From contig OY253684.1 in the NCBI GenBank assembly GCA_958009085.1, positions 1 to 64,000 of the forward strand: a DNA stretch of 64,000 nucleotides, read 5' to 3'. Below are positions 15,551 through 52,255 of this stretch, in pieces; the first letter of the stretch is position 1; each line of letters starts with the position of its first letter. Under the pieces are notes generated by a model. That model made no database searches. It was not told the DNA's origin and worked only from the letters and a program-made list of their open reading frames with translations. This stretch comes from Protoeuglena noctilucae. Taxonomy: Eukaryota. The translations under genes and the position numbers were made by a program.

Positions 15551-15750
15551 NNNNNNNNNNNNNNNNNNNNNNNNNNNNNNNNNNNNNNNNNNNNNNNNNN
15601 NNNNNNNNNNNNNNNNNNNNNNNNNNNNNNNNNNNNNNNNNNNNNNNNNNNNNNNNNNNNNNNNNNNNNNNNNNNNNNNNNNNNNNNNNNNNNNNNNNNN
15701 NNNNNNNNNNNNNNNNNNNNNNNNNNNNNNNNNNNNNNNNNNNNNNNNNN
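15551..15750. other. Assembly gap (200 N)
   Basis: Run of n characters. Confidence 1.
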
Positions 15751-45483: not shown

Positions 45484-47663
45484 TCATTCGACGTTATCCA
45501 GAAGGGCCCGGCGCAACCGCGGAGGAAGGCCCTCCACCCCCGGCGACCCACGACGCGCCGCCTGCCCCCCTCGCCCGTATCCATTCGCACCCGCACTCCC
45601 CGTTCCACCCCTCGCCGCGTCATTCCTGCCCCCTCGGCCCGCTTCGGCCTCAACCGCCTCCCCCAGCCCACGTTCCGCCCCGCTCCTCGCCCCGCCCACC
45701 TCCCCCGCACCCTCCGCTCCCAACCTCGCCCCATCGCTGCCCATCCCCGTCTCCGATGAAGACGCCCAGGGGTCGTCAGGCACTCGGAACGCAAACCGAT
45801 CCCCCACACCGGGACCCAACCCCTCCCGCGCAGCTGCTGATGCATCTCTGCCTACCGGCGCCACGCCTGCGCCCCCCTGCAGACCCTCTCCCTCCTCCCG
45901 CACCCACAGCACTCCACCTCGCTGCCCTGCGGTCCCCTCCGCCCCCTCCCCACGCGCAGTCGCCTCGTCCCCGTCCCGCACCCATAACACCCCTCCCGCC
46001 CCTCTCGCACTGGCCCCTCCTGGCCCCTCGACCTCACCAGCTGACGCTAACCCCGGCGCCACGGCCTCTCTCGTGGGCAGGGGTGGCGGTGGGGCCTGGG
46101 CCGGTGCATTGTCGGGTCCCGTGCCTATGCCCGCATCGTCACTCGTTGCTGGCGGAGTGCCCCGGGACCTGACGATCGCCGAAAGAGCCTCAGCTGCCGT
46201 GGCCACTCCGTAGGCGAGGAAGGCGGCGACGAGGCCAGGGCTGACTTGCACAAAGAGCCTGGGTGGCAGGGGGGGTGCGGGTGGTGCAGTGACACGACCG
46301 ATCGCAGACATGTCGCGGACACCCACGCGCATGCCCCTGCCTGCATCTCACCGCAGCGCTCTCGCCACACTGGCACCGGCATCCGTGTCCCAGACGCCAC
46401 CCTCCAACTCCGCCACCCACGCATTGGCAGCACGGTACGCGCTCAGCGCGCCACCCAGCACGCCGCCCCCGCCACCCCTCGCATCCGACGCCCGCTTCCC
46501 CTCTCTCTCTCGCCCCTCTCCGACTCCCCCCGCACCGCCCTGCCCCTCCTGCTCCTCTCTCATCCGCCGCACCAAGTCCATGAACGTCAAGCCACCCGGC
46601 TCGTCACCGTCTGCGTCCTTCGCCACCGCATCCGCCGCGGCACCAGAAGGGGGCGGAACGGGCGTTGCGGTGCCTGGAGACACGCCAGGCATCGCAAGGG
46701 CGCTGTTGCCGCCCGACGCGTCACGCGACGGCACCCTGCCCGTGGCTTCTGCTGCCCCGCCGACCCTGTTATCGGCCGGGGCGGGCGGCATGTCCACGCG
46801 CTCCCCCCCCTCGGGTGCAGGGCTGGCCAAGGGCGGGGCCGAGCGCGCACCCACCAAAGCCTGGGGCGCATGGGACGGGGCTTGGCATTTAATGCCGGAA
46901 CTCATGCGCCCCCATACACGACATTGTGTTGAAGATGATATGACTTTAGACTCCGTGTCCCACGCACCCGGGTCAGCTGCTCGAGGGGACCACTGCCCCC
47001 GCCCTGCCCTGCCAGGCCGCCCAGCACCCCCGCCAGACCCCGCGCCGTCCCCCGCTCGTCCGCCGTGAGCATCGCGTCCAGGAGGTCAAGGAGTTCCGAG
47101 TCAGACATCGTCGACAGCCGCTGCGCCACTTCCCTCTGCACAATGGCCTCCTGCACCCAGCGCAATGCGACTCAGTCGCTGAGCGGACTCACACAGGCAT
47201 TACTGGAGTCATACCAAGACAATAGCTGGCATGCGCACCACCGGGAGTGCCCACGCGCAGCCGGCGAAGGGGAGCAAGCCCATGCCGAGTCGCACCGCCC
47301 CACACGCACCAGCCGGGGACGGTCGGCGTTCACCCATGACAGAGCGCCCGCGTGGACGGCGTCCGCTCTCGCTGCCCACACCAGCGACGCCAGGAGAGCC
47401 GCGGCGAGGCCCGCTGAGCACGAAGGACGCGGACGGCCATCCCGGCCGCAGGCCGCGACGCGTCTCTCGGCGACTCGGCCACGGCGTGCGCGAGCTCGGT
47501 CAGCCCCAGACTGCCGGCCGGGACGGTGCGTCGGCGTGAGAGTGCGGCCGAGGAGGACCAAATGCGCCGGCATGGACGGCCCTCGAGAAAGGGCAGCGCG
47601 GTCGTCGTCTCCCCGAGTGCCTGCGTCCGATGGGTTTGGACTAGGCCTGACCAGATCTGCCAT
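45484..47663 (-). CDS. Uncharacterised protein, possibly plastid-targeted, with hydrophobic segments
   Basis: Arg-rich N-terminus followed by hydrophobic LAAALLASLVWAARA; exons WVQEAIVQREVAQRLSTMSDSELLDLL and VSPGLVAAFLAYGVA; ends RRALLDNVE*. Confidence 0.55.
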
Positions 47664-47840
47664 CCGCCTGGGACCGCTGAGGACCTCTGAGGACGCGCCT
47701 GGGAGCTGCCAGTGTCCGGCATGCGCAGGCCGGCAGCCGTGCCAGACAAGGCGGGGAGCTCGGCCCGCCTCGCGGGGGGCCGTGCGGCAAAACTAGCGCG
47801 CAAACACCGTCGCTGCTGGCCTTATGGGCACGTCGCGACG

Positions 47841-48300
47841 ATGGTGGAGCGCGCGTTCGTGATCAAGTGCCTCGTTTTGGCCGCGCTGGGAGCCCTGGGC
47901 CCGGTCCTCGTCGTTGCGGCCTCAGCGCGGGAGGGCTTCGGCAAATGGGCCTTGTACGCGGGCTATGCAGCGCTCAACGTGGGCATGACGGTCGCCACGC
48001 CGTCCGTGCTGGTGGGCGTCGCACCCAGCGCCCCGACCGTCTGTGTCGCTCTTCTATGAGCTCACGCGCCCTTCCCGGTCCCTGCCGCAGAGCTCCGGGC
48101 CCCCGCTGGTGGCCTCGGCCCTCCGCAGCTCCGCGGCCATGGTGCTGCAGGGTGCCTTCGCGTGGCTCTTCTTCGGCCAGGCGCTGTCGGCGCGCTGGGG
48201 GGCGGGGGCCGCGTGCATCGCGGCGGGCACGGCGCTGGTCACCGCGGCGGCCGAAGCGGGCGCGCCGCCCAAGCCCGGTGTGCCTCCCAAGCGCGACTGA
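47841..48300 (+). CDS. TMEM42-like (DMT/EamA-fold) small membrane protein, 2 exons
   Basis: Four hydrophobic helices; LVASALRSSAAMVLQGAFAWLFFGQALSARWGAGAACIAAG resembles the TMEM42 C-terminal half; intron 48012-48090. Confidence 0.7.
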
Positions 48301-48315
48301 CCCCCGCCGCGCGAG

Positions 48316-49439
48316 ACACCGACGCTTGTGTCCCCGCCTACCCCTGGGCCGTGCGCTGCTGGGCGGCCGTGGTCGCGTACGAGGGCACTGACTTTGCGGG
48401 CTTCCAGCTCCAGCTCCAGGCCGGCGACCCCCGCGCGCGCACCGTGCAGGGGGCCCTGGAGGCCGCGGTGGAGCGTGTCACGGGGCAGCCACGCGCGGCG
48501 CAGAGCATGATTGCGGCGGGGCGCACCGACCGCGGCGTGCACGCCCGCGGGCAGCTCGTCTCCTTCCTCACCGGCGTGCGTGGGCGCGGCGGTGCCCCGC
48601 TCGACCCCGACCGCCTCGCACGCGCCCTCAACGGCGTCCTTCCCCCGGACGTCCGCGTCGCCCGCGTCATCGCCGTGCCCCCGGACTTCTCCGCCCACTA
48701 CGCCTGCCTGAGCAAGATCTACGAGTACGACCTCGCCACGGGGCCCTACGTCGACCCGTTCGCCCGCCGGACGTGCGCGGCGTTCCCGGGGCCCTTCGAC
48801 GTCGACAGAGCAAGGGAGGCGTGCCGGGCGCTGGAGGGCGCCCACGACTTCACGCAGCTGTCGACGCGGGCGGCGGACGGCGCCGAGCGCGACCCCCGGC
48901 GCATGGTGCTGAGCTGCACCGTGCAGGCGCTGGCGGGGGGGCACGGGTGCCGCATTCGGGTGCAAGGCGCGGGCTTCCTCTACCGCCAGGTCCGGCACAT
49001 GGTCGGGGCGGTGGCGGCGGTGGCACGCGGGCGCTGCTCCCTCGCAGCACTGCAGGAGCGCCTGGCGGTGGGGGGCCGCGTTCCCAGGGGGGAGCTGCCG
49101 CCGCTGTGGGCCGTCGCGCCGCCGCAAGGGCTGACGCTCAGGCGAGGGCGGGGGCGAGTAGCGGGGGCGCTCTGCAGCGACGCTTTTCGCTCATATGTCG
49201 CCCTCCTCGCACGCAGCGCTGTGGAGGTCCCCGACCCTCTGCCGCTCCCGGAGGATCTGATGTTCCCTGGCCTGCCCCACGCCGAGTCGGGCTTGGTGGA
49301 CGGCGCAGCTGTCCTCGCCATGGACGGAACGCACCTGGAGGACGCCATAGGGGCATACCTGGGTCGCACAGGCTCTGGCACACTTCTAACGGGAGTTTAT
49401 TCGGATTCGCTGCATCCCTTGCCCTCTGAGGTCGCTTGA
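48316..49439 (+). CDS. truA: tRNA pseudouridine synthase TruA family; initiation codon not evident
   Basis: VAYEGTDFAGFQ, RTVQGALE, AGRTDRGVHARGQ (catalytic Asp), GAHDFT, GFLYRQVRHMVG and APPQGLTL. Confidence 0.9.
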
Positions 49440-49557
49440 AATGAGCATATGTGGTAGGTTTCCCTGGGGAGTTTCTAAGAGAGAAGACGAGTGCGCGGGT
49501 TCGGCGCATTTCGGGAAGCGGCGTTTGGGCAGTCCACGGGCGCGCGCGACTCGTAAC

Positions 49558-52255
49558 ATGGCACAGTCATTGAAGCACAAGAAGGTCTCGCTACCGGAGC
49601 AGGCGGATGCAGAGGCGCCCCGCAGCAAGGATGGAGCGTCCTCGGCAGGTGCGGCGCGTACACGTCTGGGCTAGGCGTGCCATCATAGCATCGTCAATTG
49701 AGCGGATTAGGGGCAGGAGATGGGATTCGGACGCCATCGTGTCCAGGGTCCTCGGGACACGTTTAGGGTCATTGGGCCCGAGGTTCCTTGAGATTTTCAC
49801 CGCCTCTTGACCCTCAGGATGCTGTCCCCTGGAACCCGAAGACCTTGTATCCCCGGATCTGTGGGCAGCCGGGGAGCGGCCTGCGAGGAGCCGCTGTGGG
49901 AGCCGAAAGAGCGAAGGCCCAGACCCTCGCATCGACTCGCGACGCCTGAGCTTCGGCAGCCGGGCGTCCTTTCGGGCCAACACGCACCCGGAGCTGCGGC
50001 CACCCACGAGGAGGGAGCGCCTGCTCAGCGCCGTCGCGGACAACGCCACCGCGATGCGCGCCCGGCCCGTCATCCCCCTGGCGGCCCTGCTTGCCATGGC
50101 TGCCGTACTGGGCACTATGCTGGCCCTGTTCTCGGTGATCGACTCGAGCGACCGCGCCCGGCAGATGGACTACACCCGCGCCATCGCGCTCCACGCGAAG
50201 GCCGCGGCGGAGACGCAGTCCAAGACGTGGGTACACCCGGCCGCGGCCATCGGTTCGATCATTCAGCTGGACCCGAGCGTGCCCGCCAGCCTGGCACACT
50301 TCGCCGAGGCGGCTCCGCAGGTCCTCAGCAGCCTGGGCATCGACGGAGACGCCTCGACCACGACGCTGCAGTTCGCCCCGGACACGGTCATCGCGGCCGT
50401 GTACCCGCAAACGGCGGCCACAGTGGGGGCCATCGGGTTGGACATGTTCTCCCTGCGTGGTAAGGGCACCCACGCGGCCATCACGGTAGCGATCCAGAGC
50501 GGGCAGTACTACTTCCGTGGGCCACACATGGTCAGCGGGGGAGACGCCGGCGAGGTGGAGCTGGCGGTGCGGTACCCCGTGTTCGTCAACGTGACGTCCG
50601 CCACCATATTGAGCTCGGATGGGTCCCAGGGGTCCACCACGGGGGCGCACTTCTGGGACGTATCGCCTGCTACTGACTCGGCGCCGGCGACGGTGTTCTG
50701 GGGATTCGTGAACGTGTTGCTGGACTGGGACGTGCTGCTCGCGTCCATGGGCCTCGACACGGGGGTGACCAGGCGAGGATGCGGGCTGGCATGGGTGTGT
50801 TGCGTGTGCTCGTGTCGCTGGGCACAGGCAAGAGCGCCCTTGCATCGCAGTGTGGGGTGGCGGCTCGTCAATCCCGCGCACAAAGCGGGTGCGCCCGACA
50901 CGGTCCTGGCCCAGTCGAGCACGCCAGCGACCGGAGTCGTCCAGCGCGTCAGCATCAACGTGAGGCGTGCAATGGTTTGACCTGAAGAGCCGCGTCCCCG
51001 GTTGCTTGACGGTGAATTTGAAGGGAGAGGATCCTCTCGTCTGCTACGCCCACCGCCCACCCCCGCAGCTCCAGCGCGACGCGTGGGTCCTGGAGGTGGG
51101 CCTCACGACGTCGCCCGTGCCGCGATGGATGCCGGCCGCCTGGACCGCGGCAGCTCTGGTGACCCTGGCTGTGGGCGCCCTTACCGTCGTGACGCTGCTC
51201 TCCCACAGACACGTTGCTCTGCTCGAGGCCTTGTTACCCCGCCGGGTCATCGCCGCCCTCTACCGTCGCGACTTCGTGGCTGAGGCACTCCCCGACGTGG
51301 CGGTGCTCTTCGTCGACGTGGTCGAGTAAGTCACGACAGCTACCTATTGAGCCAGCCACAGCGCGGTGCAGTGCGTCGCATGGTGCACGACATATGTCGT
51401 CTTCGGGAAGAGCCTACGAGACCTGTCATCGCCTGACTCGCCGCGCTCCGCAGGTACACGCGCCTCTCGTCCCGCATGGCGCCCATGGAGGTGCTGGCGA
51501 TGCTCAACACCCTCTACGACACCTTCGACGAACTCTGCAGCGGCTTCGCGCTCGTACGCAAGCTTGACATCATCGTGAGCGAGCTGCGGGGGCTTGCAGC
51601 CACTTGCACGCCGGCAGCGATGGCTGTCGGCTTTACTGCCCCATGCTGCGCGAAGCAGGCACAGAGCAAACGCCTGCTTTCCGTCGCAGGGGGATGCGTA
51701 CATTGCGGTCAGCGGTGCGGAGCCTGGCAGCGACCCGGTGGCGTCGGCCGAGCAGCTGGCGCGGCTGGCGCTGGCGATCGTGGCTGCGGTGGATGCTCAC
51801 CCCTACGTGCACCGGGAGAGGCTGCAAGTGCGCGTGGGCCTGCACGCGGGCCCGGTGGTGGCCGGGGTCGTGGGAGCCCGCAAGCCGAAATGGACCTTAC
51901 TGGGCGATACCATGAACACGGGTACGTGCTTGGTCGATGCAAGAAAGTAGGCTTAGTGATTTACCAGTGCTCTGACGCGGCCATCTCGGCTGCACGCGAC
52001 ACGTGCCCCATTGTGACAGCGACACACCCGCTGCCGCCCGCAGGCAGCCGCATGGAGAGCACGGGGGAGCCCGGGCGCGTGCACTGCTCGGAGGCTTTCC
52101 GGGATCGGCTGGCGGGGAGGACCGTCGACCTGCGCTTCGACCTGCGCGGCCACAGCGTGTTCGTCAAGGGCAAGGGCGCCATGACGACCTACTGGCTCAC
52201 GCGCGCCCCCGCCATCTCCGCCAGCGTCACCTCGGCCACGGTGCAGGAGGTATGA
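49558..52255 (+). CDS. TM-CHASE-TM class III adenylate/guanylate cyclase
   Basis: CHASE motifs LQFAPDTVIAAVYP, AIGLDMF, GPH, RYPVF and FWGFV; cyclase motifs LFVDVVEYT, IGDAY, VRVGLHAGPV, GDTMNTGSRMES and VKGKG. Confidence 0.9.

Follow-up and report, generated by a model that had tools for sequence, protein, structure and literature searches.

Dual-coding loci, in which one exon is read in two frames, are represented in eukaryotes by CDKN2A (INK4a/ARF), GNAS (XLas/ALEX), and POLG (POLG/POLGARF). A locus that may combine this kind of organization with the polycistronic expression of green algae is found in the window analyzed here, a stretch of 64,000 nucleotides (nt) from Protoeuglena noctilucae (assembly GCA_958009085.1, contig OY253684.1, positions 1 to 64,000), where the gene for a predicted tRNA pseudouridine synthase, TruA, directly follows a small membrane-protein gene. 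According to PMC11291117, the bicistronic mRNAs of green algae carry a short first open reading frame (ORF1) and few ATGs ahead of the second (ORF2), which is reached by leaky scanning, and a few of these loci have overlapping stop and start codons. Leaky scanning has been demonstrated experimentally for such mRNAs (PMC11291117, PMC7896298), and the passages of PMC7896298 covered mention neither a pseudouridine synthase nor overlapping ORFs.

The locus resembles these green-algal mRNAs in several respects. A short upstream ORF (126 amino acids) is followed on the same strand by a longer enzyme ORF, the space separating them being too small for a promoter; the two proposed starts have no ATG between them; and colinear RNA contigs span both ORFs. 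We favor, at a likelihood somewhat short of even, an overlapping two-protein locus in which TruA starts at ATG 47945, within ORF1. Under this model, a 277-nt out-of-frame overlap takes the place of the inter-ORF spacer, and the ORF2 start would lie 104 nt after that of ORF1, whereas the passages on published green-algal cases mention only overlapping stop and start codons. The locus also differs from them in that its ORF1 ATG is not in a weak context and in that its RNA evidence consists of contigs rather than long reads. As in CDKN2A, GNAS, and POLG, one stretch of nuclear DNA would specify parts of two unrelated proteins, the newer frame being of low complexity and rich in Arg. Unlike in those loci, the second frame would provide an old, conserved enzyme with a targeting presequence and would not create a new protein, and it would be entered via the next AUG of the same spliced mRNA instead of through an alternative first exon or a CUG. 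The enzyme itself shares with bacterial TruA (PDB 1vs3, 1dj0, 2nqp) the PF01416 domains, the catalytic Asp of the GRTD motif, and the elements of the fold, but it is nuclear-encoded with a spliceosomal GC-AG intron and is extended at both ends, by a long N-terminal stretch and by a C-terminal tail of about 70 residues.

The features of the locus, in window coordinates, are as follows.

47824..47862, plus strand: candidate upstream ORF (uORF) of 12 codons, ATG 47824 in frame 1, stop at 47860-47862, overlapping the ORF1 start codon; recognized from sequence only
47841..48011, plus strand: ORF1 exon 1, 57 codons in frame 0, two hydrophobic helices of an EamA-like protein
47945..47947, plus strand: proposed start of TruA (ORF2), from the ATG map and the joining of frames
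48012..48090, plus strand: predicted ORF1 intron, 79 nt, GT-AG, phase 0, from the frame switch, site scores, and homologues
48091..48300, plus strand: ORF1 exon 2, 69 codons in frame 1 and a TGA, C-terminal half of the EamA-like protein
48093..48350, plus strand: frame-0 part of the proposed TruA presequence, rich in Arg, Ala, and Gly, with a predicted local distance difference test score (pLDDT) below 50 in the structural model for 48129-48347
48127..48128, plus strand: alternative acceptor AG, which together with donor 48012 puts ATG 47841 into the TruA frame
48278..48315, plus strand: candidate 38-nt intron, rejected on account of colinear RNA contigs, a poor acceptor, and short length
48351..49141, plus strand: TruA catalytic domain, first coding block, from PF01416, PDB matches, alignment, and predicted fold
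49142..49216, plus strand: TruA intron, 75 nt, GC-AG, in frame and stop-free, spliced in an RNA contig of run X3
49217..49439, plus strand: TruA C-terminal exon, ending in TGA 49437-49439

An Intact TruA Without a Start Codon of Its Own

Frame 0, which encodes TruA, is free of stops from 48060 to its terminator at 49437-49439. Its product matches PF01416 in two stretches with 96.2 bits (cut-off 23.3) and retains all 41 columns that are invariant in an alignment of eight sequences (A1), including the catalytic Asp of GRTD (D134). The best solved relatives are the bacterial TruA structures 1vs3 (2.1e-23, aligned over residues 6-247) and 1dj0 (1.6e-18), whereas eukaryotic Pus3 and Pus1 match more weakly (E 1e-11 to 1e-8). 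By these scores bacterial TruA (E 2e-23 to 2e-18), and not Pus3/Pus1, is the nearer relative, and the sequence predicts an intact, bacterial-type tRNA pseudouridine(38-40) synthase. Its closest relatives, 41-45% identical, are green-algal. An AlphaFold model based on a shallow eight-row alignment (mean pLDDT 67, predicted template modeling score 0.61) shows a complete fold, beginning with the N-terminal strand at residues 75-84 (residue 75 being encoded at 48351) and continuing with the core elements, while all residues encoded before 48351 have a pLDDT below 50.

The sole colinear Met in this frame ahead of the remaining domain lies at 48507, well inside the enzyme. Over the 52 codons of 48351-48506, the codon log-odds, for which other coding segments of the window and the TruA core (48510-49139) served as the training set, amount to +34.2. 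At the position of Met 48507 the homologues have an internal Val or Ile, and the GRTD catalytic Asp lies just downstream. Taken together, the coding bias ahead of this Met and its alignment to internal residues indicate that translation must begin upstream of about 48350. In each of the four algal homologues inspected (P0002-P0005), the AYDG motif is preceded by an extension of about 36-66 residues that begins with Met, and the only near-identical database entry, P0001, is a GTG-start call (GTG 48351). Relatives of TruA were not found among the metagenome contigs of the Joint Genome Institute (JGI), an exact search of the same contigs with 27 nt from the end of exon 1 gave no match, and the N-terminal 150 residues of frame 0 matched no protein shorter than 252 amino acids in the protein database.

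The initial annotation had placed the ORF1 stop at 48300, with the TruA motif about 70 nt further on in another frame and no ATG in that frame before Met 48507. Both points are borne out: the VAYEGTDF motif begins at 48372, 72 nt past the stop, and the ATG map contains no ATG in the TruA frame from 48060 up to 48507. Nor does any frame contain an ATG within 48142-48506. Inter-ATG gaps of at least 365 nt number 8 of 828 in the window, and the local base composition alone gives a probability of 0.17 for the absence of an ATG. Every ATG able to open the TruA frame sits at or upstream of 48141, inside the membrane-protein gene, and TruA must therefore either share sequence with that gene or use a non-AUG start. 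The earlier claim that TruA depends on the upstream gene thus stands, and a promoter is probably shared between the two unless a non-AUG start is used. Inspection by eye of the end of ORF1 revealed no slippery heptamer for a -1 frameshift. Exon 1 and TruA are both in frame 0 and are parted by a single TGA (48057-48059, next base G) within the intron, so that readthrough of this TGA on intron-retaining RNA, as seen in two runs, would fuse exon 1 to TruA; this is probably a coincidence, given a one-in-three chance of frame agreement.

The Upstream Gene and Its Predicted Intron

ORF1 opens at ATG 47841 in frame 0, runs for 57 codons up to the GT at 48012, continues in frame 1 of exon 2 (48091-48300), and ends at TGA 48298-48300, giving a predicted 126-residue, weakly EamA-like product with four helices. 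Codon log-odds for exon 1, whose G+C content at third codon positions is 0.88, are +41.6 over 57 codons in frame 0 and -36.7 and -44.3 in the other frames. For exon 2 they are +41.6 over 69 codons in frame 1, and by codon bias the coding frame changes from 0 to 1 exactly at the intron 48012-48090. The EamA (PF00892) match of exon 2 is weak (17 bits, E=0.0075, below the cut-off of 28.2), exon 1 has no Pfam match, and EamA-like fragments in Atlas, at 0.93 for exon 2, are a lead only. The label TMEM42 used in the initial annotation is unverified, as the Pfam scan gave no TMEM42-specific family. An exhaustive HMMER search with exon 2 returned six proteins at E ≤0.001, one being a 99%-identical strain variant and the other five sharing 41-62% identity (E 1.5e-7 to 9e-4). 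EamA is matched by four of these five, only one of which reaches the cut-off (28.3 bits). The relatives align from residues 4-17 of exon 2, one of them at its sole Met (residue 17) and most upstream of it, which indicates that exon 2 needs exon 1 and the 79-nt intron. The exon-2 peptide was found in no protein of at least 122 amino acids in the protein database.

Several side observations concern exon 2. The protein P0078 (85 amino acids) is 99% identical to the unspliced frame-1 reading, with one Gly-to-Arg change at 48199, and this one-residue difference indicates the existence of a very close strain variant; read in the TruA frame, the base at 48199 falls in the middle of a codon of the proposed presequence. 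The internal ATG of ORF1 at 48139-48141 (Met 17 of exon 2) has a near-perfect Kozak context, GCGGCCATGG, and prokaryote-style gene callers have begun homologue fragments at the equivalent Met (P0079).

Splice sites were scored with donor and acceptor matrices built on 66 introns inferred from codon-bias segments elsewhere in the window. These introns lack RNA verification and the matrices were used in their selection, so that the percentiles, which give the rank among all such dinucleotides in the window, are rough. The inferred introns measure 47-320 nt (5th percentile 58, median 115), and their acceptors are CAG in 61 of 66 and GAG in 2. GC donors occur in 14 of the 66, about seven being GCGAG; GC-AG introns look unusually common in the window, and the RNA-verified TruA intron starts GCGAGG. 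The sites relevant to the locus score as follows.

Donor 48012: score 5.4, 97.1st percentile
Acceptor 48091: score 8.8, 97.6th percentile
Acceptor 48129: score 6.8, 95.6th percentile
Acceptor 48093: score 1.9, 80.5th percentile
Acceptor 48316 (38-nt intron): score -5.4, 38.9th percentile

The frame switch, these scores, and the exon-2 homologues together suggest that the 79-nt intron 48012-48090 is removed from the ORF1 transcript. Acceptor 48093, an AG 2 nt past the canonical one, is also frame-compatible but was rejected for its low score and its GAG type.

RNA Contigs Across the Locus

Contigs from three marine metatranscriptome runs (X1, X2, X3), which come from a different study than the one that probably yielded the assembly, were placed on 47200-49800. 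Since contigs may drop rare forms and uncovered parts prove nothing, gaps were not taken as evidence. Matches without a single mismatch or gap extend over 47904-48789 (X1), 47951-48659 (X2), and 48212-48429 (X3), whereas 47637-47903 is covered by no contig. The initial annotation had allowed for an assembly indel hiding an ATG or for an untranscribed TruA. The exact RNA match from an independent study excludes the former. As for the latter, an X3 contig joins 49138 to 49214 with three ambiguous letters, which fits the GC-AG intron 49142-49216, and TruA is therefore both transcribed and processed. The same intron is left unspliced in the X1 and X2 contigs, which span both ORFs colinearly and without splicing; colinear contigs of this kind cannot prove a single transcript, and the unspliced ones may reflect pre-mRNA or DNA in the libraries. 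None of the joints 48011/48091, 48011/48129, and 48277/48316 was seen in any RNA contig.

A Proposed TruA Start Within the Upstream Gene

All combinations of ATG, donor, and acceptor that reach the TruA frame without a stop were enumerated by script. The simplest route is absent from the initial annotation and consists of the ordinary ORF1 splice together with ATG 47945: traced backward across the junction 48011/48091, the TruA frame becomes frame 2 of exon 1, where it meets ATG 47945, the next ATG after 47841 in any frame. When 47945-48011, 48091-49141, and 49217-49439 are joined, the resulting 1341 nt encode 446 amino acids with no internal stop, and ORF2 overlaps ORF1 by 277 nt. The 116 residues preceding VAYEG comprise 17 Arg and 4 Asp/Glu, with Gly and Ala as the commonest residues. 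Since the four algal homologues carry extensions at the same position, an organellar presequence is to be expected, and the 116 residues are probably a targeting peptide of this kind.

Under this proposal, one transcription unit would give rise to two unrelated proteins in overlapping frames. Translation of ORF1 would proceed from ATG 47841 through exon 1 and, once the 79-nt intron has been removed, through exon 2 to the stop at 48300. ORF2 would start at ATG 47945 in frame 2 of exon 1, be moved by the splice 48011/48091 into frame 0, and continue into TruA, where removal of the GC-AG intron would yield a 446-residue enzyme with a 116-residue presequence. Ribosomes could gain access to ATG 47945 by leaky scanning past ATG 47841, by reinitiation after the uORF 47824-47862 if transcription starts upstream of it, or through a transcript start between 47841 and 47945. 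The uORF overlaps the first ATG and ends 83 nt ahead of 47945. ATG contexts were judged by the -3/+4 rule, the Kozak consensus derived from the window being too noisy to use; at ATG 47841, A occupies -3 and G occupies +4, and at ATG 47945, C occupies -3. On a still more tentative footing, it may be envisaged that an ancient bacterial-type TruA lost its own start and gained a new organellar presequence of 116 residues by overprinting an alternate frame of the upstream gene, with one spliced nuclear mRNA specifying two unrelated proteins from starts 104 nt apart and with 277 nt of dual coding.

The configuration exceeds chance only modestly. ATG 47945 is formed by an ORF1 Lys codon AAA and a Trp codon TGG. 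The other three Lys codons of ORF1 are AAG, and AAA is rare: in 60 confident coding segments, it encodes 20 of the 212 Lys (9.4%). Of 20,000 synonymous resamplings of ORF1, 25.7% produced an ATG in the TruA frame with an open path. That frame 0 stays open across exon 2 is not informative (P=0.63). Neither Asp nor Glu occurs in the 69 codons that frame 0 has there (resampling P=0.013, post hoc), and the acidic content of the whole presequence is low as well (resampling P=0.019, post hoc).

A number of points weigh against the proposed start. In 9.1% of the 20,000 resamplings, an open-path ATG was also the next ATG by chance, and both tests of acidic residues were chosen after the data had been seen. 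Codon bias in the overlap follows ORF1 alone, frame 0 scoring -25.5 over 56 codons. Overprinting would predict this, but the overlap itself thereby provides no coding signal in favor of ORF2. At 116 residues, the presequence has roughly double the length of the homologues' extensions. In contrast to the weak-context first ORFs of published algal cases, ATG 47841 is in a favorable context, which implies that leaky scanning would be inefficient here. Finally, both contigs that cross 48012-48090 (2/2) are colinear and the splice 48011/48091 was not seen; as X1 and X2 also leave the verified TruA intron unspliced, the RNA neither confirms nor refutes this intron.

Alternative Routes to TruA

Two splice routes had been put forward in the initial annotation. 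In one, donor 48012 is joined to acceptor 48129 as an alternative 3' splice site and ATG 47841 with exon 1 is read into TruA, so that either the membrane protein or a TruA with 57 hydrophobic N-terminal residues would be produced from a single promoter and a single AUG. Its frame compatibility and freedom from stops hold, its acceptor is good (6.8, against 5.6 for the RNA-verified TruA acceptor 49217), its 117-nt intron is near the median, and the acid-poor frame 0 of exon 2 suits it equally well. However, the route is not needed, its junction is shown by no RNA contig, and an equally good AG in a compatible frame would, by estimate, turn up by chance in 15% or so of cases. Moreover, adenines from 48065 to the acceptor occur only at 48089 and 48091, which makes CTCAC (48061-48065) the likely branch site, and the first AG past it is the canonical 48089-48090 rather than 48127-48128. 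The product would also bear two N-terminal transmembrane helices, which would be unusual in a soluble enzyme acting on tRNA and would set it apart from the homologues. We therefore regard this route as rather unlikely. The other route, a full membrane-protein/TruA fusion through a 38-nt intron (48278-48315), is likewise frame-compatible and has a branch-like CTGAC 15 nt before its AG, but it is hardly credible: all three RNA contigs cross it colinearly, including that of X3, the run in which TruA's own intron is spliced; its acceptor falls near the 39th percentile and is of the GAG type; and at 38 nt it is shorter than every one of the 66 inferred introns. An arrangement reminiscent of INK4a/ARF, with alternative first exons and exon 2 read in two frames, would instead connect ATG 47721 and donor GTGCGG 47782 to acceptor 48091, skipping exon 1. 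This path is frame-compatible and stop-free, the RNA-supported intron of the downstream gene has the same donor hexamer, and frame 0 of 47721-47781 scores +7.6 over 20 codons. Such a separate upstream exon nevertheless appears improbable, because the donor reaches a score of just 3.1 (91st percentile), the intron, at 309 nt, approaches the inferred maximum of 320 nt, and the coding signal weakens to +4.3 under a stricter background. A second candidate of this type (ATG 47336, donor 47526) would require a 565-nt intron and lies in a region where coding signal is absent and two RNA contigs run colinearly across.

Initiation without AUG deserves separate consideration, since non-AUG starts are used by plant organellar proteins and are discussed in the literature together with transit peptides. 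Translation of TruA in frame 0 might begin at one of six in-frame near-cognates (GTG 48162, CTG 48195, GTG 48213, CTG 48297, GTG 48351, GTG 48369), either on a bicistronic mRNA or from a transcription start site of its own in ORF1 exon 2. CTG 48297 overlaps the ORF1 TGA, CTG 48195 and GTG 48369 have G at both -3 and +4, and from about 48297 onward the codon bias of frame 0 becomes positive (+6.8 over 18 codons). On a shared mRNA, however, ribosomes would have to pass five AUGs (47841, 47945, 47965, 47985, 48139). With a separate transcription start, the first AUG, at 48507, would waste most initiation on a product without the first strand and helix. Starts at or beyond 48297 leave at most 25 residues before the fold, as opposed to 36-66 in the homologues, and the explanation is less simple given that an AUG solution exists; it is, in our view, unlikely. 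The absence of a colinear in-frame ATG before 48507 could also mean that TruA is a start-less relic or is made only as a truncated product from Met 48507. This seems quite improbable, since codon bias is fully coding-like before 48507, all invariant TruA residues are present, including those ahead of that Met, and the gene is transcribed with its intron spliced in a natural population. A product begun at 48507 would, according to the structural model, miss the first strand and helix of the fold.

Adjoining Sequence

The window has a G+C content of 62-72%, short introns are abundant in it, and a run of 200 N at 15551-15750 represents an assembly gap. An Rfam scan of 47000-50000 yielded no match at E values up to 1. 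Upstream of ORF1, RNA contigs of X3 (47347-47617) and X1 (47430-47636) fall in a stretch without coding signal on either strand, situated between a minus-strand gene, whose first coding block ends at about 47110, and the ORF1 start. This RNA may be a long 5' untranslated region of either adjoining gene or a separate non-coding RNA. For the next gene downstream (ATG at about 49558), contigs begin at 49350-49383, ahead of the TruA stop at 49439, which indicates that neighboring transcripts overlap or abut. In the same region, a loose end of an X3 contig at 49649 resumes at about 49818, corresponding to a GT-AG intron of about 169 nt (49649-49817), and the ORF 49811-50977 matches no Pfam family.

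Significance of the Locus

The organization of this locus bears on how such genes are annotated. Standard eukaryotic gene finders, which assume one ORF per mRNA and an ATG start, would drop TruA or cut it at Met 48507, and prokaryote-style callers begin it at GTG 48351, as in P0001. If TruA indeed starts at ATG 47945, a single synonymous change in ORF1, Lys AAA to AAG, should abolish TruA. Polycistronic expression in green algae would then extend from side-by-side ORFs to a long out-of-frame overlap, and a targeting peptide made by overprinting an existing gene would provide an example of presequences arising from non-homologous sequence.

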